Of a stretch of DNA of 64,000 nt, positions 2,322-30,204 are shown in pieces. Every line of letters begins with the position of its first letter. Position 1 is the stretch's first letter. This DNA is from Escherichia coli. Its GTDB lineage: Bacteria; Pseudomonadota; Gammaproteobacteria; Enterobacterales; Enterobacteriaceae. Under the pieces are notes generated by a model. That model was not told where the DNA came from and searched no databases. It was given only the letters and a program-made list of their open reading frames with translations. The DNA lies in assembly GCF_024298765.1 (NCBI RefSeq), contig NZ_CP101210.1, one strand, 5' to 3'. The position numbers and the translations under genes are program-made.

Positions 2322-3131
2322 CTAATTCGGGCGCTCACAAAGTGGGGCTAAATATTCATATAACGTTGCTGACGAAAAGGAGACATCGCCACAGGCACGT
2401 ACGGGCATCACTGGCATTAACGCATTACAAATAACCATCTCATCTGCCTGCAACGCCTCCTCCAGCGAGGCTTGCACTTCGACAAGCTGATAAGAGGATT
2501 GTGCCAGCAAACGGATACAGAATTGTCGCATAATGCCGTTAACACCTGCCTGATCCAGTCGCGGCGTATAAACTACGTTGCCCTTCCGCCAGAACAAATT
2601 AGCCGCACAGCATTCCGTAACCCACCCTTCGCTGTCAAGGACCAGCGCCTCATCAGCGTTTGTCTGCTCAAGATGAGAGCGGATCAATACTTGCTCAAGC
2701 CGATTAAGATGTTTAATACCTGCAAGATGAGGATTGCGCCCCAGCCGCACCGGGCTTAGCGCCAACGTCATCCCCTCGTTACGCAAACGGTCGTAATGTG
2801 CGGGATAAACCGTAACGGAGAGAATCCGCGTTGCCGGTCCGCTGTTCAATGTGCTGTATCCTCGCCCGCCACTACCGCGACTGATCACCACTTTCAGCAC
2901 ACCATTTTGCTGTTCTGCTGCCAGCGTTTTCATCTCTAGTTCAAGCTGAGGCCAGAAGTCACAGGAAATCATCAACCGCTGACAAGCATCCTGTAGTCGC
3001 TGGATATGCGCCGATAACAAACTGACTTTACCGTCGATAACTCTGGCGGTGGTAAAACAACCATCACCAAACTGCGTTGCCCGATCGCTTACTGCCAGCG
3101 ATTCCTGCTTATGACCGTTAATTAAGAACAT
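2322..3131 (-). CDS. pabC: aminodeoxychorismate lyase
   Basis: 269-aa ORF starting [28 protein letters not shown]; synteny. Confidence 0.9.
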
Positions 3132-3199
3132 ACCGGCTCCTTATCAGAGAATTGTTAGTGTGGCAGCATGTTCACTACGGAACAAGTCGGAATAAAAGC

Positions 3200-3905
3200 T
3201 AATAAATATCCTCCGGCATAGCCGGAGGTTTTTCAAATGCGCCTATAAGGCTCTCTTACCAGCCGCGCCCTAACAGGCGCACACGATCTGACATTTGCAT
3301 CCAACTTCGTTACTTACGGCCCGTAAACGGGCTGCCCGGATAGGGAATCGATAACTGCTCTCCCATTTTATCCTCTTCAAGCTGGTGCTTTATGTAATCC
3401 TGTATCTTCGCCGTGTTCTTACCCACCGTATCGACGTAGTACCCTCTGCACCAGAACTCTCTGTTCCTGTATTTGAATTTCAAATCACCAAACTGCTCGT
3501 AAAGCATCAGACTGCTTTTCCCTTTCAGATATCCCATAAAGCCGGATACACTCATTTTGGGCGGGATCTCCACAAGCATATGGATATGATCTGCACAGCA
3601 TTCAGCTTCAAGAATCCGTACGCTTTTCCACTCACACAGCTTTCTCAAAATACTGCCTATTGCTCTACGCTTCTCTCTGTAGAACACTTGTCTTCGGTAT
3701 TTTGGCGCAAAAACTATGTGATATTTACAGTTCCATCGGGTGTGCGCTAAGCTCTTTTCGTTCCCCATTGGGACCCCCTTTTGATTTCTTGTTTGACACT
3801 TGCAGTTGCCAGACCGCAAGGTGTTTTAACAAATCAAAAGGGGTTTTAATAACTGGCTCAAAGCTGAAAGCTTTCCGGAACCCCCAGCCTAGCTGGGGGT
3901 TTTCT
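3200..3905 (-). mobile_element. IS200-family insertion sequence (~0.7 kb); ends approximate
   Basis: Single Y1/HuH transposase gene plus a perfect hairpin CCCCCAGC-ctag-GCTGGGGG (~3871-3889) upstream of tnpA, as in IS200; sits in what should be a short pabC-fabF spacer. Confidence 0.75.
3310..3768 (-). CDS. tnpA: IS200 transposase TnpA (IS200/IS605 family, Y1 HuH)
   Basis: 152 aa from MGNEKSLAHTRWNCKYHIVFAPKYRR, with HuH motif ADHIHMLV and a catalytic Tyr region; track ORF trimmed to the internal Met. Confidence 0.9.
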   Translation of the reverse strand: MGNEKSLAHTRWNCKYHIVFAPKYRRQVFYREKRRAIGSILRKLCEWKSVRILEAECCADHIHMLVEIPPKMSVSGFMGYLKGKSSLMLYEQFGDLKFKYRNREFWCRGYYVDTVGKNTAKIQDYIKHQLEEDKMGEQLSIPYPGSPFTGRK

Positions 3906-15980: not shown

Positions 15981-16006
15981 GCCCTGGTAACTGCCAGGGC
16001 TTTTTT
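15981..16006 (+). terminator. rne Rho-independent terminator
   Basis: GCCCTGG-taactg-CCAGGGC followed by TTTTTT. Confidence 0.75.
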
Positions 16007-16033
16007 ATTTCAGGGGTAGCATCTTTGCTGTAA

Positions 16034-16062
16034 TGACATTAGCGTTACATGTACTGTATAAT
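16034..16062 (+). promoter_or_regulatory. putative sigma70 promoter with operator palindromes for the toxin-antitoxin operon
   Basis: TGACAT-17 bp-TATAAT; palindromes TAATGaCATTA and TACATGTA overlap it. Confidence 0.5.
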
Positions 16063-16093
16063 TATCATCCACGCAAAGCCGAAGGATATATTT

Positions 16094-16878
<785 letters not shown>

Positions 16879-16972
16879 TTCGTTATGTCTCATGCAAAAA
16901 AATGCCCGCCCCGGCGATCCCAGAGCAGGCAGACAAAACATACCCAGTTTCATGATATGTTTTAAAGCGAAA

Positions 16973-17926
16973 TTATTTGTTGAGCTGGAAGAGCGACAAT
17001 CCCTGCATATCGGTAAATGCTTTATACGACGCCTGCAATGCCGTTTGCTGCATGATGTAAGATGAAATAGTTGCATTCCAGTCCACATCAACCAGATCGC
17101 TCATCTGCTGCGTTTGCCCTAAAGCGCGATCGCTACCTAATGAATCCAGCGACTCCAGTTCGTTCAGCTGCGTGCCTAATTCCGCGCGAACAGTCAGCAC
17201 ATTGTTCAGCGAGTTTTTCAGTCCGCGGTTGGTTTTATCCAGTGCCGCAGCGGCGGTTTCTTTATCCGCTTCGCTATCCGCGACCGGCGTTTTCAGGGCT
17301 GCGATGGCGCTATCCAGCATGGCAAAAAGATTGGTTTCAGAAGCGCTACCGTCTGGTTCCGCTACCGCGTTGCTGGTAATACTGTCGAAAATTTTGTCAC
17401 CCGTGTGCCCTATCACCATCGAACGCGAAGCATCGACCTGTTGTTTAATACTTTCTGCTCCGCCTTCGTATTTTCCATCCGCCTCGCTAAACGGTGCGGA
17501 TTCTGTTTTATAACCGGCAAAAATGTAGCGCCCGTTACCGTCAGTGGTGTTCGCCAGATTCAGCAACTGGTCACGAAGCCCCTGAATATCCGTAGCCAGC
17601 GAGGCCCGGTCATCGTCACTCAAGGTGCCATTGCTGGCGTAGACAATTTTTTCCTGAGCATTCTGGATAGCGGTGGTGACCTGGCTAAGTACACTCTCTT
17701 CCAGTGACACTTTTTGAGTGGCGAAAGTACGCGCCAGCGTGTACTGGCTGTTTTGCGCCTGTGCCTGGGAGAGAACAACAGCTTGTGATGCAGCAATGGG
17801 ATCATCTGAAGGGTTAACGACTCGCTTACCCGTCGACATCTGTTCGCCGTACTTCATCCATTCTGCCTGAGAATTGGTGATACCACGCATGTTTTGCTGG
17901 TACATCATCTGGGTACTGAAACGCAT
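16973..17926 (-). CDS. flgL: flagellar hook-associated protein 3
   Basis: 317 aa, flagellin-like N and C termini. Confidence 0.93.
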   Translation of the reverse strand: MRFSTQMMYQQNMRGITNSQAEWMKYGEQMSTGKRVVNPSDDPIAASQAVVLSQAQAQNSQYTLARTFATQKVSLEESVLSQVTTAIQNAQEKIVYASNGTLSDDDRASLATDIQGLRDQLLNLANTTDGNGRYIFAGYKTESAPFSEADGKYEGGAESIKQQVDASRSMVIGHTGDKIFDSITSNAVAEPDGSASETNLFAMLDSAIAALKTPVADSEADKETAAAALDKTNRGLKNSLNNVLTVRAELGTQLNELESLDSLGSDRALGQTQQMSDLVDVDWNATISSYIMQQTALQASYKAFTDMQGLSLFQLNK

Positions 17927-17937
17927 CTTATCTCCCC

Positions 17938-19581
17938 TTAGCGAATGTTAATCAGCGCATCAAAAATCGCGTTTGCCGTCTGCAGAACCTGCGCATTCGC
18001 CAGGTAATACTGCTGAAAACGTTGCAGATTTCCGTACTCCTCATCGAGATTGACACCGGAAATCGACTGCTGCTGATTGGAAAGCTGCGTCACCACATTA
18101 CCTTGCGTGGTGCTACTGGTTTTCAACGTCGCGGTTTTATTACCGATATCACTCACTAACGAGGCATAAGCGTCGTTAAAGGATTTCGCACCGCCCACCG
18201 TTTTACTGTTGCTTTGCAGATCGAGCAGGGCCTGACCGTTGCGGTTGTCGCTATCACCTGTATCTTCTGCGCTCGCCATGGCGATTTTCGCTTCGTCGGT
18301 GATTAATACATCCATGTTGACGATGGCGTCACTTACCGGTTTCAGCGTGAAGCTGTCGTTAACGGCAGGCGTTCCTGTAAACGTCAACTCCAGATCATCA
18401 AATGCCACTTTACCGCTGGCATCCGGCGTCACCGTAAAAGTGGTATTACTGGCAAGGCGGGTGACCTGCCACTGATTATTATCGAACGAGATTTTGTAAT
18501 CTGTCGCCAGTACCGCGGAGGCATCAGTTACCGTTGCACCGATCGCAACGTCACCTTTGTTTTTCGTGTTTTGCAGAACCGCGGGCTTACCGATAGCAAA
18601 GAAATCTTCACCGGCATCGCCGTTAGCATCAAATCCGGCTTTGTGTTGGGTGTTGAAAGCCTCGGCAAATGCCAGCGCCAGTTGTCCAAGCGTATTACGC
18701 GTCTGGTCCAGATCCTGAGAACGGAATGTCAGAATGCCGCCCAGCGACCCGGTATTCAGTAATTTCTCCGGGATCTCAATATTGCCTGCCGTCCCATCAA
18801 CATAAGCGACAGTCGTACGAGAAGGGTCAGCGCTGGAAGGAACTGCCGCCAGTTGCCGAGCCGTACTTCCCTGAACCAGTGAGTAACCATTGGCCATCGT
18901 GATGTTATAAGTGCCACCATCCTGAACGCTGACTTCTACACCAACAATCTGGTTTAATTCGCTCACCAGTTGATCGCGTTGATCCAGCAGATTGTTAGGT
19001 GACGCCCCTGCCCCCACGCCTGTCAGGCGGGAGATTTGATCGTTCAGGCTGGCGATTTGTTTAGCGTAATTGTTGATCTGATCAACGCTGGCACCTATCG
19101 CGATATTGACCTGTTTGTCCTGGTCGCGCAGATATTGATCGGTGGTTTTAAACTGATTCACCAACCCTTCTGATTTCCCAATCAGCGCCTGGCGCGCTGC
19201 CGGATCTTCCGCGTTACTCACCAGCGTTTGCAGGCTGGTGAAGAAATCCTGCATCTGTGTTGCCAGCGAAGAGGTACTGGTGGAGAGCATATTGTCGATT
19301 TTCGACATCTGCTCATAGCGGGCGGTCAGGCCGCTACTTTGCGTCTGCGCAGCACGTAACTGGTTGGTAATAAACGCATCATACTCACGCTGCACACCAG
19401 AAACGTAGACGCCATTGCCAACCCAGCCGCCAGCGCCCAACGTGCTATTGGCCTGCGCCATAATAGTGGTTTGGCGGGTATATCCGGCAACGTTATAGCT
19501 GGAGATATTATTACTTGCCGTATTTAACGCCGCCTGGGCCGCGTTCAGTCCGCTCATGGCGTTATTGATCAAGCTGGACAT
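17938..19581 (-). CDS. flgK: flagellar hook-associated protein 1
   Basis: 547 aa MSSLINNAMSGLNAAQAALNTASNNISSYNVAGYTRQ. Confidence 0.95.
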   Translation of the reverse strand: MSSLINNAMSGLNAAQAALNTASNNISSYNVAGYTRQTTIMAQANSTLGAGGWVGNGVYVSGVQREYDAFITNQLRAAQTQSSGLTARYEQMSKIDNMLSTSTSSLATQMQDFFTSLQTLVSNAEDPAARQALIGKSEGLVNQFKTTDQYLRDQDKQVNIAIGASVDQINNYAKQIASLNDQISRLTGVGAGASPNNLLDQRDQLVSELNQIVGVEVSVQDGGTYNITMANGYSLVQGSTARQLAAVPSSADPSRTTVAYVDGTAGNIEIPEKLLNTGSLGGILTFRSQDLDQTRNTLGQLALAFAEAFNTQHKAGFDANGDAGEDFFAIGKPAVLQNTKNKGDVAIGATVTDASAVLATDYKISFDNNQWQVTRLASNTTFTVTPDASGKVAFDDLELTFTGTPAVNDSFTLKPVSDAIVNMDVLITDEAKIAMASAEDTGDSDNRNGQALLDLQSNSKTVGGAKSFNDAYASLVSDIGNKTATLKTSSTTQGNVVTQLSNQQQSISGVNLDEEYGNLQRFQQYYLANAQVLQTANAIFDALINIR

Positions 19582-19646
19582 GGAGGTTCCTTATAAGCCT
19601 TCAATTACAGAGTATTATCGGCAGCGCCCCGCCGGACTTGAGTTAT

Positions 19647-20588
19647 TCAGAACAGATTATCAATGTTCATGCTGTAGGTTTTGCTCACCTTGTCGCTTAT
19701 CGATTTCATCTGCTGAATCATGCTGGTGAGTTTGCGGGCATAGTGAGGATCGGTGGCATAGCCCGCGTCCTGTAGGGCCTGCGCCCCCTGCTCCGCACTC
19801 GCGGCGGTCGTCACGGCGGCGTAGCGCGGGTTACGCGTTAACAGCCCAACGTAATCCGACAATGCTTCCAGATACGAGCTGTAGACCCGAAACTTCGCTT
19901 TTACTTTCTTCGCTTCGCCATTTTCATATTCAGTCGTGGTGATTTCAGTGACTGGCCCTTTCCAGTTGCCAGAGGCTTTGACACCAAACAGGTTATAGCT
20001 CGGCTCGCCGTTTTCACGGCGGATTTGCCGTTGTCCCCAGCCAGATTCCAGCGCCGCCTGAGCGAGGATCAAATGATGTGGCACACCACTTTGCTGGCTT
20101 GCCAGTTGGGCTGGCAGCGAGAGTTGCGCGAGGAATGCTTTACTGTCACCCGGCAGCGAATCATCGTAGTTACGTGGTACGGCCTTTTGCACCAGCTGCG
20201 AAAGCGTCTGATTTTGATAACGCACCACGGTTTCGAGCGGGAATTTCATCGGTGCTGCTGGCGTGGACTCCTCTGGCAATGGTTGTTCTGGCGTCATCTG
20301 TTTAACCATCATCTCTGCCAGCCCCAGACCTTTGCCCGCCGTCATCTGTTGGGCAATCTGCTGGTCATACATACTGGTATACAGGCGAGTGTGCTCGCTG
20401 CTGAACAGGCCATCTTTTGGTAAAGCGTCGCGCATGCTTTTCAACATCATCTGCACGAACATCCCTTCCACCTGGCGGGCCACCGGACGGATATTTGCCG
20501 CCGGATCTTCGCCCGCTTTCGCCTTAAGTTCGTTGAGCGATTGTGCATCCCAGGCCGCACTTGCCAGTAGTTTGCTGTCGCTGATCAT
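19647..20588 (-). CDS. flgJ: flagellar peptidoglycan hydrolase/rod cap FlgJ
   Basis: 313 aa from MISDSKLL; C-terminal glucosaminidase domain; start overlaps the flgI stop by 1 nt. Confidence 0.9.
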   Translation of the reverse strand: MISDSKLLASAAWDAQSLNELKAKAGEDPAANIRPVARQVEGMFVQMMLKSMRDALPKDGLFSSEHTRLYTSMYDQQIAQQMTAGKGLGLAEMMVKQMTPEQPLPEESTPAAPMKFPLETVVRYQNQTLSQLVQKAVPRNYDDSLPGDSKAFLAQLSLPAQLASQQSGVPHHLILAQAALESGWGQRQIRRENGEPSYNLFGVKASGNWKGPVTEITTTEYENGEAKKVKAKFRVYSSYLEALSDYVGLLTRNPRYAAVTTAASAEQGAQALQDAGYATDPHYARKLTSMIQQMKSISDKVSKTYSMNIDNLF

Positions 20589-21685
20589 CAGATGATTTCC
20601 AGTTTTGCCCGTAGACATCCCGCACTTTGCATTGATTGCAGTATGGACATCAGATCCATCGGCGTAGCGCCCAGCGCATTGAGCGCACGCACCACGTTAT
20701 TGAGGCTGGCGCTGGAACGTACGCTTTGCAGCGAACCGCCGCTCTGGCGTAAATCGATCTGCGTTTGTGGAGTAACCACAGTCTGCCCACCACCAAACGG
20801 TGTATCTGGCTGGCTGACATTGGCCTGGCGATTAACTGTTACTGAGAGATTCCCCTGCGCTACCGCGCAGCTGTCGAGGGTCACTTCGCGATTCATCACC
20901 ACCGAACCAGTGCGCGAGTTAATCACTACTTTAGCGTCCTGCGGGGTGACATTAACCTGCATATTCTGGATATCGGCAAGGAAACGGACCTGGGAACTGT
21001 TGCCACTCGGTACGCGCACCTGAATTGTCCGCGCATCTAACGCGGTGGCGCTGCCATATCCACGCACGCGGTTGATGGTGTCAGCGATTTGCTGCGCCAT
21101 ACTGAAATCTTCGTCGTTAAGTTGCAAATTAAGTGTATTCCCGACGCCAAACTGGCTGGGCAATTCACGTTCAATAACCGCACCATTGGTGATCCGTCCA
21201 CCGTTCAGTTGGTTCACCTGAACACTGCTACCGCCAGCGGAGGCCCCTGCGCCGCCAACCAGAATATTGCCCTGCGCCAGCGCATACACCTGACTGTCTA
21301 CGCCCTTAAGCGGTGTCATCAATAACGTACCACCACGCAGACTTTTGGCATTTCCCATGGAAGAAACCACCACGTCAATGGTTTGCCCCTGACGTCCAAA
21401 CGGTGGAAGTGACGCTGTCACCATAACCGCAGCGACGTTTTTTAGCTGCATATTAGTGCCCGTCGGAACGGTAATTCCCAGCTGTGAAAGCATGTTATTA
21501 AGCGTTTGTGTGGTAAACGGCGTCTGAGTTGTCTGGTCACCTGTACCATCAAGCCCCACCACCAGGCCATAGCCAATCAGTGAGTTTTGCCTTACCCCCT
21601 GAACACTGGTGAGATCGCGAATACGCTCAGCCTGAGCCGCCGTGGTAACCAGTAAAAGAATTAATGCAGAGAGAAATTTAATCAC
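20588..21685 (-). CDS. flgI: flagellar P-ring protein
   Basis: 365 aa from a GTG start (M)[18 protein letters not shown], signal peptide; track ORF trimmed. Confidence 0.9.
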
Positions 21686-21696
21686 CACAGCCTCAC

Positions 21697-22395
21697 TTAC
21701 ATTGGCGACAGGTTGAGGAAGAAACGCTGCAACCAACCCATATTTTGCGCTTCGTTAATGTAGCCATTGCCTACGTATTCAATACGCGCATCCGCCACCT
21801 GAGTAGACGGTACGGTATTGCTGCCGCTGATAGTGCGTGGATTAACCACGCCAGAGAAGCGAATAAATTCGGTACCCTGATTAATGGCGATCTGTTTTTC
21901 ACCCACCACATGCAGATTGCCGTTGACCAGTACCTGGTCAACCGTCACCGTCAACGTGCCGCTAAAGGTATTACTGGCATTGGCCCCGCCTTTTCCGTTG
22001 AACGTGTTACCACCGGAGGCTTCGACATCGGCACGAGCGTTACCAAACAGCCCCTGCAAATAGCGCGGCACAGTATCAAAGCCAAAATTAGTTTTACCGT
22101 CACGGCTGGCATTCGCAGAGGAGCTTTTGCTGGCGCTGACGTTCTCCTGCAACACGATGGTCAGCGTATCGCCAATATTGCGTGGTCGACGATCTTCAAA
22201 CAGCGGTTGATAGCCATAGTTAATCGGCTGAGCAGACTGGAAAATAGAACCGTTGGCGACGGGCGTCGGACCGGGAACCGGTTGTGCACTGGTCGCCCCC
22301 TGTACCAGCGGCGTGGAGGGTATCCAGGCGCAGCCGGTTAGTGAAAGCACCAACAAGCTGGAAATGGCATAAGTATGCGCAGCGTTTTTTTGCAT
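21697..22395 (-). CDS. flgH: flagellar L-ring lipoprotein
   Basis: 232 aa [22 protein letters not shown] lipobox. Confidence 0.92.
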
Positions 22396-22447
22396 GGCTA
22401 TCATCTTCAAAAATCAGTAAACCGGTGAATCTGCCACCGGTTATGCC

Positions 22448-23248
<801 letters not shown>

Positions 23249-23274
23249 TTAGTGACAAAGTGCATCTGTCTTCT

Positions 23275-23335
<61 letters not shown>

Positions 23336-23400
23336 GATTGCCCCATAGACCCGATAAACTTGCGCATCGGGCAACTTATACTTGTCATGTATCCTTTCAA

Positions 23401-24156
23401 TTAACTCATCGACAGCAGTTGGTTGGCTCGGCCTGCGTTATCATCGACGCTGCTGATCACCTTCATCTGCATTTCAAAACGCCGCGCGCTGGCAATCATG
23501 TCGCTCATTGCCGCAACGGCATTGACGTTACTGCCTTCCAGAACACCCGACATCACACGCAAGGTTGGATCTGCCTGCAGTACCGGCCCACGCGTGGTCT
23601 GGGTTTCTGCGCTTAAACGAAAAATGCCGTCGTCACCGCGCTGGACTTCGCTGCCCGTGGCTTTCACCAGTTTCAGACGCCCCACTGGCGCAACCGTATT
23701 TGCCGGATCGCCCGGATTCAGCGCCGAGATTGTGCCATCGGCAGCAATAGTGATTTCCGCCCCTTCCGGCACAGCAATTGGCCCAGCCTCGCCTATCACC
23801 GGATGTCCCTGAATTGTCAGTTGCCCGGTGGGATCAACCTGAATGCTGCCATTACGCGTATACCCTTCGCTACCGTCAGCGGTCTGCACGGCCAGCCAGC
23901 CATCCTGCTGCAACGCAACGTCCAGCGGGCGCGAGGTGTAATCCATCTTGCCGGGCGTCATGTCTGCACCCGGCGTTGACGCCGTTACCAGCGTGCGCGT
24001 AGGCAGTGAAAGCCCTTCCACCGGCACTGCGCGCAAGGCGTTTAACTGCGCGCGAAAACCGGGCGTTGAGGCATTGGCCAGATTACTGGCAGTTACCGCC
24101 TGTTGATTCAACGTCTGGCTGGCTGCTCCCATCGCGGTATAAATTGCGTGATCCAT
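23401..24156 (-). CDS. flgF: flagellar proximal rod protein
   Basis: 251 aa. Confidence 0.93.
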   Translation of the reverse strand: MDHAIYTAMGAASQTLNQQAVTASNLANASTPGFRAQLNALRAVPVEGLSLPTRTLVTASTPGADMTPGKMDYTSRPLDVALQQDGWLAVQTADGSEGYTRNGSIQVDPTGQLTIQGHPVIGEAGPIAVPEGAEITIAADGTISALNPGDPANTVAPVGRLKLVKATGSEVQRGDDGIFRLSAETQTTRGPVLQADPTLRVMSGVLEGSNVNAVAAMSDMIASARRFEMQMKVISSVDDNAGRANQLLSMS

Positions 24157-24175
24157 TGAGCTATCCCGTCAGCGA

Positions 24176-25381
24176 TTAGCGTAAGTTAACCAGCGTGTTG
24201 AGGATCTGGTCCTGGGTTTTGATGGTCTGGGCGTTAGACTGATAGTTACGCTGAGCAACGATCATATTGACCAGTTCTTTACTGAGATCGACGTTGGACG
24301 CTTCCAGCGCACCGTTGGTCAGGGTGCCAAAGTTGCCCGTCCCGGCTGTCCCCAACAGCGCCACGCCAGAAGATTGCGTCGCAGACCAGACGTTGTCGCC
24401 TTCGGATGCCAGACCTTCGTTGTTGGCAAAGTTCGCCAGTACAATCTGCCCCAGCAGTTGGGTTTGTTCGTTGGAATAGTTGCCGACAACCGTACCGTCA
24501 TCATTGATTTGATAACTCACCAGATCGCCCGGTTTGTAGCCGTTCTGGGTGGTTGCCACAATGTTGTTAGCGCCGGTATTTTGCTGCATGGAGTTGAGGA
24601 AGCTCAGGCTAAACGTGGCGGGTTCTGCACCGTTAATTGCGCCAGTGGAAATATTCGCTGTTGGATCTGAGGTCAGAACGCCATTGGCATTAAACACCAG
24701 CGTCATTGCAGGCTCAGCTGTACCTGTTGGATCACTGCTATCCTGGGTGTAGACCTGCCAGTTATTATCCCCGGTCTTCACAAAGTAGACGCTCATGTCA
24801 TGAGCATTACCCTGACTATCGAAAACAGTCACCGAACCTTTTTTGTTATAGCTATCCGCATTGCTGGCATCAAATGCGTTAACAGAGGGAAGCGGATCAC
24901 TGGAATTCAGGTTGATCTGCATCGACGCCGTGGTGGTAGTTTTCGCTGCCATCAGGGTATTCGGAATCGAAATATTGGTCGGATTCGCCCCTTGCTGAAT
25001 AGTCGGCGGCGTACCGGTTGCCGGGTAACCCGTCAGCTGTAAACCTTGCATATTCACCAGGTTACGGTTTTCATCCAGCTTAAATTGTCCGTTACGGCTG
25101 TAGAACACCGAACCGTTGCTGTCTACCAGACGGAAAAAACCGTTCTGGCTGATAGCAACGTCCAGACCTCGCCCGGTGTTGGTGGTCGTGCCATCGGTAA
25201 AGTCCTGAGTGATACCAGCAACTTTTACCCCCAGTCCCACTTTCGAACCGGCAAACATATCGGCAAAAGAGGCCGTGCCTGATTTAAAGCCGTAGGTGGC
25301 AGAGTTGGCGATATTGTTGCCAATAACATCGAGGTTGGTGGCGGCAGCGTTTAATCCGCTAACCGCTTGAGAAAAGGCCAT
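24176..25381 (-). CDS. flgE: flagellar hook protein
   Basis: 401 aa MAFSQAVSGLNAAATNLDVIGNNIANSATYGFK. Confidence 0.95.
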   Translation of the reverse strand: MAFSQAVSGLNAAATNLDVIGNNIANSATYGFKSGTASFADMFAGSKVGLGVKVAGITQDFTDGTTTNTGRGLDVAISQNGFFRLVDSNGSVFYSRNGQFKLDENRNLVNMQGLQLTGYPATGTPPTIQQGANPTNISIPNTLMAAKTTTTASMQINLNSSDPLPSVNAFDASNADSYNKKGSVTVFDSQGNAHDMSVYFVKTGDNNWQVYTQDSSDPTGTAEPAMTLVFNANGVLTSDPTANISTGAINGAEPATFSLSFLNSMQQNTGANNIVATTQNGYKPGDLVSYQINDDGTVVGNYSNEQTQLLGQIVLANFANNEGLASEGDNVWSATQSSGVALLGTAGTGNFGTLTNGALEASNVDLSKELVNMIVAQRNYQSNAQTIKTQDQILNTLVNLR

Positions 25382-25405
25382 GACTGACTCCTGAAATGTG
25401 AAGGC

Positions 25406-26101
25406 TTAAATTATCTGCCGTACTTCGTCGAGGGTGGTGGTGCCGTAAGTGCCGAGATCCAGCGTATTACCGTTGTTGCCGCGGATCACACCCTGCACCA
25501 GAGCAAACTGCAGCGGCTGGGCAACCAGTTGTGTACCACCGTTACTGGCGCTAATCGCTACGTTGTAAGAACCGTTCGGCGCAGTGGTGCCGTCAGTCAA
25601 CGTACCGTCCCAGGTGAAACTGTGGACTCCGGCGGTCAGTTCACCAATATCAATGGTACGGACAACCGCACCGTTTTTATCGGTGATGGTGGCCGTCACT
25701 TTGTCTGCCGCCTGTTGCAGCTCAACACCAAACGGCGTGGTCGTGGTCACAGCCCCTTCTTCACTGCCGGTTCCCGCAAGAACAGTGGTGCCGGGGATCA
25801 TCACGCCGTGACCGATCAGGTTACTGGCCTGTAACGACTGGCTGTTATCAATCTGTCCGGAAATAGATCCGAGCGTGGTATTGAGTTTTTCAATCCCGCT
25901 GACCGTGCTGATTTGAGCCAATTGCGACGTCAGCTCGTTGTTTTCCATTGGATTGGTCGGGTCCTGGTTTTTCAGCTGCGCCACCAACAAAGTCAGAAAA
26001 CTGCTTTGTAAATCTGCGGCGTTGCTGCCCGTGAGCGAACTACTGCTGGTGGTGCTGACGCCGGTATTTGTCGGATCGGTGGTGGTTACCGCAATGGACA
26101 T
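25406..26101 (-). CDS. flgD: flagellar hook cap/assembly protein
   Basis: 231 aa. Confidence 0.93.
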   Translation of the reverse strand: MSIAVTTTDPTNTGVSTTSSSSLTGSNAADLQSSFLTLLVAQLKNQDPTNPMENNELTSQLAQISTVSGIEKLNTTLGSISGQIDNSQSLQASNLIGHGVMIPGTTVLAGTGSEEGAVTTTTPFGVELQQAADKVTATITDKNGAVVRTIDIGELTAGVHSFTWDGTLTDGTTAPNGSYNVAISASNGGTQLVAQPLQFALVQGVIRGNNGNTLDLGTYGTTTLDEVRQII

Positions 26102-26112
26102 AGTTTTCTCCT

Positions 26113-26517
26113 TTATTGACCGAGCGTAAGGGTTTTCAGCATCATGCTTTTCACCGTGTTGAGCACTTCAACATTGGCCTGATAGCTGCGTGACGCCGAC
26201 ATGGTGTTAACCATCTCTCCGACGACATCAACGTTTGGCATTTTCACGTAGCCCTTTGCATCCGCCAGCGGATTACCCGGTTCATAAACCAGTTTGTCCG
26301 GGGCCTGACTTTCTATAACATCGGCAACCTTTACGCCGCCTGTCGCAGCACCTGGCGCAGCGTTAACCTGAAATACCACCTGTTTTGCCCGATATGGCTG
26401 TCCATCGGGACCGGTCACGCTATCAGCATTCGCCAGATTACTGGCCGCCACGTTCAGGCGCTGGGACTGAGCAGTTAACGCCGACCCGGCGATATCAAAA
26501 ATATTCAGCAGTGCCAT
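26113..26517 (-). CDS. flgC: flagellar proximal rod protein
   Basis: 134 aa. Confidence 0.95.
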
Positions 26518-26520
26518 CCG

Positions 26521-26937
26521 TTAATTTCCGCTCTGTAAAACGTTCATCATGCCTTTGATTTGCCCGCTCAACGCGCTAAGGCTCATCTGGTATTGCAGGC
26601 TGTTATCGGCAAACTGGGTGCGTTCGCGATCCATATCGACAGTATTACCATCCAGCGAGGGCTGGTCCGGAATACGGTATTGCAGTTCTGCGGTAGGAGG
26701 CGTCAGCGCCTGCGCCGGAATGTGTTGCGTTGAGGTCATCGTCAGTGCAACCACGCTTGTTGCATCCCGTCCACGTTGCATGACTTTTTTAAGTTCACTG
26801 GCAAAATCGATATCGCGCGCCTGATAACCAGGGGTATCGGCATTGGCGATGTTTGCTGCCAGCACTTCCTGACGCTGGGCGCGCAGATTGAGCGCCTCTT
26901 GTTGAAAACGTAAGGCGGCGTCGAGCTTATCGAGCAT
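26521..26937 (-). CDS. flgB: flagellar proximal rod protein
   Basis: 138 aa. Confidence 0.95.
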
Positions 26938-27092
26938 ATCTCCTCCGCAGGTATCAAAATTCGGCCATCAGCTTAAATGCCTTTACGCGCGCGTTATCGG
27001 CGGAATAAACGCAAAATGGGTCGCTATTTATGCCGTTGATGGTCATTGCGGACAGGTACAATTCACGTTGTAGAAATGGCTGGGGGGCGAAA
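26938..27092. promoter_or_regulatory. divergent flgB / flgA promoter region (class 2 flagellar promoters expected)
   Basis: Short spacer between divergent flgB and flgA; individual FlhDC sites not resolved. Confidence 0.5.
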
Positions 27093-27752
27093 ATGCTGGC
27101 AATAAAACGTAGCGTGGCGATCATCGCGATACTGTTCAGTCCGTTAAGTGCGGCGAGCAATCTCACATCGCAATTGCACACCTTTTTTAGCGCCCAGCTC
27201 GCGGGGGTAAGTGATGAGGTTCGTGTTTCTATTCGTACAGCGCCCAATCTACTACCGCCGTGCGAGCAGCCATTGCTTTCGATGAGCAATAATTCCCGCC
27301 TGTGGGGCAATGTGAATGTGTTGGCACGCTGCGGTAACGACAAACGATATTTACAGGTTAATGTGCAGGCCACAGGAAATTATGTGGTTGCCGCAATGCC
27401 CATTGTGCGGGGAGGAAAGCTGGAAGCTGGCAATGTCAAACTGAAACGCGGACGGCTGGACACCTTGCCACCGCGTACGGTGCTGGATATCAATCAACTT
27501 GTTGATGCCGTTAGCCTGCGCGATCTATCACCCGATCAACCTATCCAGTTAACCCAGTTTCGCCAGGCATGGCGGGTAAAAGCGGGACAACGCGTCAACG
27601 TGATCGCCAGCGGTGATGGGTTTAGCGCCAACGCAGAAGGTCAGGCGCTGAACAATGCTGCCGTCGCACAGAATGCGCGGGTGCGCATGGTATCGGGACA
27701 AGTGGTCAGCGGCGTTGTTGATGCAGATGGGAATATTCTTATAAACCTGTAA
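27093..27752 (+). CDS. flgA: flagellar P-ring assembly chaperone
   Basis: 219 aa from MLAIKRSVAIIAILFSPLSAAS; track ORF trimmed. Confidence 0.88.
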   Translation: MLAIKRSVAIIAILFSPLSAASNLTSQLHTFFSAQLAGVSDEVRVSIRTAPNLLPPCEQPLLSMSNNSRLWGNVNVLARCGNDKRYLQVNVQATGNYVVAAMPIVRGGKLEAGNVKLKRGRLDTLPPRTVLDINQLVDAVSLRDLSPDQPIQLTQFRQAWRVKAGQRVNVIASGDGFSANAEGQALNNAAVAQNARVRMVSGQVVSGVVDADGNILINL

Positions 27753-27757
27753 GCTGT

Positions 27758-27784
27758 TAAAGATTACCCGTCCCTTGCCGATAA
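27758..27784 (+). promoter_or_regulatory. sigma28 (FliA) class 3 promoter for flgMN
   Basis: TAAAGATT-11 bp-GCCGATAA, ~45 bp upstream of the flgM ATG. Confidence 0.8.
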
Positions 27785-27827
27785 ATAAGCAACACATGAT
27801 AAAAGCGCCCTCAATGAGGAATAAACC

Positions 27828-28121
27828 ATGAGTATTGATCGCACTTCGCCTCTGAAGCCCGTAAGCACCGTTCAACCGCGCGAAACCACTGACGCGCCGG
27901 TAACGAACACCCGGGCGGCAAAAACAACCGCCTCCACCAGCACCAGTGTGACGTTAAGCGACGCGCAAGCAAAACTGATGCAACCCGGCAGCAGTGATAT
28001 CAATCTTGAACGTGTCGAAGCGTTAAAACTAGCGATTCGTAACGGTGAACTAAAAATGGACACCGGCAAAATTGCCGATGCGCTGATCAACGAAGCGCAG
28101 CAAGACTTGCAGAGTAACTGA
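27828..28121 (+). CDS. flgM: anti-sigma-28 factor
   Basis: 97 aa [22 protein letters not shown]. Confidence 0.95.
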
Positions 28122-28125
28122 TCGT

Positions 28126-28542
28126 ATGACGCGTCTTGCAGAGATCCTCGACCAGATGTCCGCTGTGCTTAACGATCTCAAAACGGTAATGGATCAAGAG
28201 CAGCAACATCTCTCTATGGGGCAGATCAACGGCAGCCAGTTGCAATGGATTACAGAACAAAAAAGCTCTCTGCTGGCGACGCTGGATTACCTCGAACAGT
28301 TACGCAGGAAAGAACCCAATGCAGCAAATAGCGTTGATATTAGTCAACGCTGGCAGGAAATTACTGTGAAAACGCAGCAACTACGCCAAATGAATCAACA
28401 TAACGGCTGGTTACTGGAAGGACAGATTGAGCGCAATCAACAGGCGCTGGAAATGTTGAAACCGCATCAGGAACCGACGCTATATGGAGCGAACGGTCAG
28501 ACCTCAACAACCCATCGCGGCAGTAAAAAGATTTCGATCTGA
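28126..28542 (+). CDS. flgN: flagellar export chaperone for FlgK/FlgL
   Basis: 138 aa. Confidence 0.93.
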   Translation: MTRLAEILDQMSAVLNDLKTVMDQEQQHLSMGQINGSQLQWITEQKSSLLATLDYLEQLRRKEPNAANSVDISQRWQEITVKTQQLRQMNQHNGWLLEGQIERNQQALEMLKPHQEPTLYGANGQTSTTHRGSKKISI

Positions 28543-28551
28543 AGATTATCT

Positions 28552-28572
28552 CCGGCCTGCACTGCAGGCCGG
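28552..28572. terminator. bidirectional hairpin terminator between flgN and murJ
   Basis: CCGGCCTGCA-c-TGCAGGCCGG with flanking T/A runs. Confidence 0.7.
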
Positions 28573-28581
28573 AATGCCTTT

Positions 28582-30204
<1,623 letters not shown>

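Follow-up and report, generated by a model that had tools for sequence, protein, structure and literature searches.

The published consensus for sigma-28 (FliA) promoters is TAAAGTTT-n11-GCCGATAA, in which the CGA of the -10 element is important (Hollands et al. 2009, PMC2859248, citing Koo et al. 2009). Among E. coli promoters, tar matches this consensus perfectly (TAAAGTTT-N11-GCCGATAA), and both tar and flgKL share with the promoter studied here a bipartite layout, an 11-nt spacer and the -10 octamer GCCGATAA; compared with flgM, the -35 element of flgKL is much weaker (TCAAGTCC). The flgM gene belongs to two overlapping operons, the FlhDC-dependent class 2 operon flgAMN and the class 3 operon flgMN (PMC4183435). 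In K-12 MG1655, FliA ChIP-seq yielded a peak at the flgMN site 48-fold above threshold (NC_000913.2 1129409; Fitzgerald et al. 2014, PMC4183435), and genomic SELEX with nothing but reconstituted sigma-28 holoenzyme gave a 15-fold peak in the flgM-flgA spacer (Shimada et al. 2017, PMC5493296). The class 3 promoter of Salmonella flgM has been dissected by mutational analysis (Wozniak & Hughes 2008, as cited in PMC2859248), and the logic of FlgM export and sigma-28 release is established (summarised in PMC4183435 and PMC10578931). The flgMN class 3 promoter is therefore an ordinary element that has already been fully described.

We analysed a 64,000-nucleotide stretch of E. coli DNA (the window), in which the 75-bp gap between the flgA stop codon (27750-27752) and the flgM ATG (27828) contains, at 27758-27784 on the + strand, the sequence TAAAGATT, an 11-nt spacer and GCCGATAA. 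The -35 octamer TAAAGATT (27758-27765) agrees with the consensus TAAAGTTT at 7 of 8 bases, the sole mismatch being A instead of T at position 6. The spacer (acccgtccctt; 27766-27776) keeps its length but not its sequence across orthologues. The -10 octamer GCCGATAA (27777-27784) agrees at all 8 bases and consists of the extended -10 'GC' and the core CGATAA, with the critical CGA at 27779-27781. All three parts of a sigma-28 class 3 promoter are present (-35 octamer, -10 octamer with a CGA core, 11-bp spacer), and the site points towards the late flagellar gene flgM a short distance downstream, whose ATG begins 44 nt past the last base of the -10 octamer. An earlier note on this DNA had proposed a near-consensus sigma-28 class 3 promoter for flgMN at exactly these positions, about 45 bp upstream of flgM. 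Its coordinates are exact on reading the sequence, its distance fits the 44 nt from -10 octamer to ATG, the consensus it quoted is the published one (PMC2859248), and the identification itself is upheld by 15 of 16 consensus bases, by the identity of the 28-mer to the K-12 FliA site and by conservation across genera. We conclude that 27758-27784 is almost certainly the known class 3 promoter (PflgM / flgMp) of the E. coli flgMN operon.

The 28-mer TAAAGATTACCCGTCCCTTGCCGATAAA matches, without a single difference, the site that FliA ChIP-seq attributed to flgMN in MG1655 (PMC4183435 Table 2). In K-12 it occupies the same position between flgA and flgM in the same orientation, and the surrounding 101 nt are 100% identical; the promoter thus shows no difference at all from K-12, while the region from flgB to flgN is 98.3% identical overall. 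The centre of the FliA ChIP-seq peak (NC_000913.2 1129384) maps to window position 27795, approximately 24 nt downstream of the motif centre, a downstream offset as described for holoenzyme-bound promoters (PMC4183435). FliA occupancy is carried over to the present strain through sequence identity to K-12, the binding itself being published K-12 data (ChIP-seq and SELEX). Dual regulation and feedback are likewise taken from the literature, and the sequence, its significance, its identity to K-12 and its conservation were observed here.

The Salmonella enterica flgM promoter resembles the E. coli one in its -35 element (TAAAGATT), the length of its spacer (11 nt), its start 5-6 nt after the flgA stop codon and the dual class 2 and class 3 control of flgM. 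It differs in its -10 element (GCCGATGA versus GCCGATAA here) and its unrelated spacer sequence (ttgtcgcgact). Furthermore, 60 nt separate the Salmonella promoter from the ATG as opposed to 44 nt here, owing to an indel of 16-17 nt within the leader.

To place the match on a quantitative footing, the window was scanned with the published consensus and with a weight matrix. A pattern search returned the flgMN site as the sole zero-mismatch match in the window. Against TAAAGTTT-N11-GCCGATAA it matches at 15 of 16 bases; analytically, 0.0015 matches with at most one mismatch to the 16 specified bases are expected over 128,000 positions. Allowing up to three mismatches gave two matches in the window versus 0.51 expected, the second being the known flgKL promoter. 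The weight matrix was derived from the motifs that Fitzgerald et al. 2014 list for FliA ChIP-seq (PMC4183435, Table 2), with flgMN and flgKL left out. Scored with this matrix, the flgMN site reached 27.0 bits and ranked first in the window on both strands, as compared with maxima of 14.7 on average (sd 2.0; highest value 22.3) in 200 first-order Markov sequences of 64 kb. A chance match is accordingly ruled out by the analytic expectation, the shuffles and the leave-out weight matrix.

The flgKL class 3 promoter (TCAAGTCC-N11-GCCGATAAT; 19641-19614, - strand) lies directly after the flgJ stop codon and is the only other canonical flagellar match in the window; it differs from its K-12 counterpart by one spacer base (G for T). 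A further sigma-28-like sequence, TACAGAAT-N11-GCCGTTAA, was seen at 2516-2543 on the + strand (17.6 bits), antisense within the ORF 2322-3131, which we take to be pabC by gene order. With no CGA core (GCCGTTAA) and no counterpart in the published list of FliA ChIP peaks, this site is probably non-functional.

Several RefSeq strains match the region around the promoter (27000-28600) at 100% identity, and 5425 of 5426 complete E. coli genomes contain it. Of these 5425 genomes, 5300 show at least 99% identity over the 101 nt that surround the promoter, and only 536 do so over the surrounding 1.6 kb. In the E. coli promoter variants that we inspected, changes fell in the spacer or at the final -35 base (CFT073: TAAAGATA), and never in the -10 octamer.

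Beyond E. coli, orthologous loci were gathered via FlgM homologues and named after cluster members. This yielded 11 other loci: E. albertii, S. enterica, C. rodentium, C. koseri, Xenorhabdus bovienii, one Hafnia-like, one Rahnella-like and four more, whose FlgM is down to about 40% identical to the E. coli protein. The genera concerned presumably span at least four families of Enterobacterales (Enterobacteriaceae, Hafniaceae, Morganellaceae and Yersiniaceae). In every one of these 11 loci, the best sigma-28 site of the whole locus on either strand was located just upstream of flgM and had an 11-nt spacer. TAAAG of the -35 octamer is kept in 10 of the 11, and the spacer sequence and the distance from promoter to ATG (44-147 nt) drift. 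In an alignment of five species (E. coli, E. albertii, Salmonella, C. koseri and C. rodentium), the invariant fraction was 0.88 for the -35 octamer (T81, A82, A83, A84, G85, T87 and T88), 0.09 for the spacer, 0.75 for the -10 octamer, where TGCCGAT is invariant, and 0.19 for the first part of the leader. Judged from this alignment, conserved elements separated by a drifting spacer present the classic footprint of a bipartite promoter. As a separate observation, the C. rodentium locus carries a gene for an IS4-family transposase directly downstream of flgM (L005, 1735-2694); it occupies the place expected for flgN, which therefore appears displaced or lost.

The promoter is embedded in a compact gene arrangement. 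Upstream, flgA (27093-27752, + strand; Pfam and RefSeq annotation) is transcribed from an FlhDC-dependent class 2 promoter that reads through into flgMN; the corresponding FlhDC peak (NC_000913.2 1130152; PMC4183435) lies at approximately 27027 of the window. Downstream follow flgM, encoding the 97-aa anti-sigma-28 factor (27828-28121, + strand; PF04316, E = 1.8e-9; RefSeq annotation of a 100% identical strain), and, as the second gene of the operon, flgN, encoding the 138-aa FlgK/FlgL export chaperone (28126-28542, + strand; PF05130, E = 6e-19; RefSeq annotation). In the annotation of an identical RefSeq strain, flgA, flgM and flgN lie on the + strand, murJ is convergent on the - strand, and flgB to flgL are divergent, also on the - strand. 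After flgN, a consensus scan returned, as a pattern match only, a terminator-like GC-rich hairpin followed by a T-run (~28551-28583, + strand), with a 10-bp stem containing 8 GC pairs. On the basis of this pattern, the hairpin probably ends both the flgMN and the flgAMN transcripts and is shared with convergent murJ.

Two considerations place the sigma-28 start a few nucleotides past the -10 octamer. A published flgM fusion with nucleotides +1 to 105 ends after codon 23 (Romilly et al. 2020, PMC7549644); 105 nucleotides comprise these 23 codons and the leader, which implies a 36-nt 5' UTR and places +1 at 27828-36 = 27792. Numbering by analogy with aer, in which CGA occupies -11 to -9 (PMC2859248), gives 27790. 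We therefore infer a start at 27790-27792 on the + strand in this strain, 6-8 nt past the -10 octamer and most likely at the A at 27792. The start ~7 bp past GCCGATAA named in the earlier note agrees with the 36-nt 5' UTR. The class 3 mRNA would then have a short 5' UTR (27792-27827, + strand), with a Shine-Dalgarno sequence GAGGA at 27816-27820. The segment CCCTCRATGAGGA in the flgM leader is conserved in the five-species alignment. No stable structure was found in the flgM 5' UTR (MFE -8.3 kcal/mol, z = +1.07), and an Rfam search of 16000-30000, flgM leader included, returned no matches; a structured leader or a known RNA family in the flgM 5' UTR is ruled out by these two results. The OmrA/OmrB pairing site has been mapped to flgM codons 1-9 (PMC7549644).

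At the other end of the divergent flg genes, we noted two features apart from the promoter. The small RNA FlgO (b4826 in K-12) corresponds to the flgL 3' UTR at 16973-16896 on the - strand, with 77 of 78 nt conserved. Right past its terminator begins an insertion of ~880 bp (16013-16893, between rne and flgL) that is missing from K-12 MG1655 and that 686 of 5426 complete E. coli genomes carry at the same chromosomal position. It contains two + strand genes, at 16094-16387 and 16384-16878, for a TacA-like antitoxin (PF08681, E = 1e-26) and a GNAT acetyltransferase, a pair that looks like a TacAT-type toxin-antitoxin system.

How much the promoter contributes to flgM expression can be read from published expression data. 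In motile MG1655, deletion of fliA lowered flgM RNA from 451 to 318, a change that was not significant, and overexpression of fliA in an flhD deletion strain brought flgM RNA back to the wild-type level or higher (PMC4183435). For comparison, tar fell from 251 to 0 in the fliA deletion and is thus purely FliA-dependent, as opposed to the dual-regulated flgMN (PMC4183435). Since the effect of the deletion is modest and overexpression restores flgM RNA, the promoter is competent and makes a small contribution in those conditions, in which it adds little beside class 2 read-through.

Taken together with the described regulatory circuit, these elements give the following mechanism. Region 4 of sigma-28 reads TAAAGATT and regions 2/3 read GCCGATAA, with 11 bp between the two. 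Initiation ~6-8 nt past the -10 octamer would produce an mRNA with a ~36-nt unstructured leader encoding FlgM and FlgN, and flgMN is also transcribed by read-through from the FlhDC-dependent class 2 flgA promoter. Upon completion of the hook-basal body, FlgM is exported, and the freed sigma-28 drives the synthesis of more FlgM and FlgN. The sigma-28 promoter thereby acts as a negative feedback input, replenishing its own inhibitor FlgM together with the FlgK/FlgL chaperone.

One published 5' end falls outside this scheme. No start at ~27790 appears in the TSS table of Kim et al. 2012 (PMC3415461), which Cho et al. 2014 (PMC3923258) used again; the only flgM 5' end in these tables is at NC_000913.2 1129417, with 14-21 reads and an assignment to sigma-70. 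This position corresponds to 27762 of the window; it falls within the -35 octamer and precedes the flgM ATG by 66 nt. PMC8527033 gives no start site for flgM. The end at 27762 may stem from noise, from processing of the class 2 transcript or from a weak additional start, and it does not contradict the sigma-28 promoter. A second feature in its vicinity is the 17-nt block GATGGGAATATTCTTAT (27726-27742, + strand) in the last flgA codons, approximately -66 to -50 from the inferred start. In the five-species alignment it is the longest invariant run from flgA to flgM, synonymous sites included; with six species it is not invariant.

A second start overlapping the sigma-28 promoter, which would be compatible with the main reading, could account for these features: a weak sigma-70 promoter or processing of the flgAMN mRNA would generate the end at 27762, and the block at 27726-27742 would belong to such a promoter or act as an UP-like element. 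In line with this idea, the reported end carries a sigma-70 assignment, both sigma-70 and sigma-28 ChIP signal were detected at this transcription unit (PMC3415461, PMC3923258), and the 17-nt block is invariant. However, read counts are low and both tables represent the data of one laboratory, and the resolution of ChIP-chip does not suffice to tell this site apart from the flgA/flgB promoters ~700 bp away. Our scan of 26800-28800 on the + strand found no sigma-70-like promoter, and TAAGCT (27750-27755) with ATGGGA as a -35 element is a poor match by eye. The block itself may reflect constraint on the FlgA protein, because it encodes the conserved FlgA C-terminus DGNILI and its core AATATTCT recurs where the NIL residues recur. 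We therefore consider a second start unlikely. On the - strand, a sigma-70-like match at 27760 to 27732 (9 of 12 bases) was rejected as chance level, with 2 such matches found versus 1.7 expected.

Because the 17-nt block is invariant from Escherichia to Salmonella and Citrobacter, and because an end at 27762 has been reported, a further, undescribed control element of flgMN upstream of or overlapping the -35 octamer can also be envisaged. It might tune sigma-28 transcription as an UP-like element or by binding a factor, or it might be a conserved site at which class 2 flgAMN mRNA is processed into an flgMN species with a 66-nt leader. We regard such an element as unlikely.

The class 3 promoter of flgMN had also been put forward in the earlier note as an internal check that the flagellar regulon is intact. 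This was not borne out. All 14 flg genes in the window are full-length ORFs, and the region is 100% identical to E. coli strains without RefSeq-flagged pseudogenes there, as an intact regulon would have it. Most of the regulon, however, lies outside the window (the flhDC, fliA, fli, mot and che genes), and the promoter stretch is nearly invariant in 5425 of 5426 E. coli genomes, whatever their motility. Moreover, in one locus (L015, the FlgM of which is named Shigella flexneri by a source), a base-for-base identical promoter stands beside a broken flgE, which consists of a 311-aa and an 85-aa ORF (2347-3554), while the flgM promoter and the adjoining flg genes look intact. This locus is in its own right a case of flagellar gene decay with the promoter preserved. 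Since L015 keeps the identical promoter beside a split flgE, the promoter is no proof of an intact regulon, and we consider it very improbable that it reports on the integrity of the whole flagellar regulon of this genome. The narrower statement holds that 14 of 14 flg genes of the window are full length.

Finally, that the motif is devoid of promoter function and flgMN is expressed only in the flgAMN class 2 transcript, to which the modest shift of flgM RNA upon fliA deletion (PMC4183435) and the missing start near 27790 in the Kim 2012 table lend some colour, has practically no likelihood left against an expectation of ~0.0015 per window, a score of 27 bits above the random maximum of 22.3, the binding of FliA to the identical sequence in vivo and in vitro, the activation of flgM by fliA overexpression without FlhDC, and octamers and 11-nt spacing that are conserved across families while the spacer sequence drifts.

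In summary, the known class 3 promoter of flgMN is present here in its K-12 form, and its significance is mostly one of annotation, as a textbook part of the flagellar hierarchy in enterobacteria. From an intact promoter it does not follow that the regulon is intact or expressed, which corrects the use to which it had been put. The flgMN promoter anchors the window as E. coli flg region I, and this confirmed case shows that sigma-28 promoters are recognisable from sequence alone.
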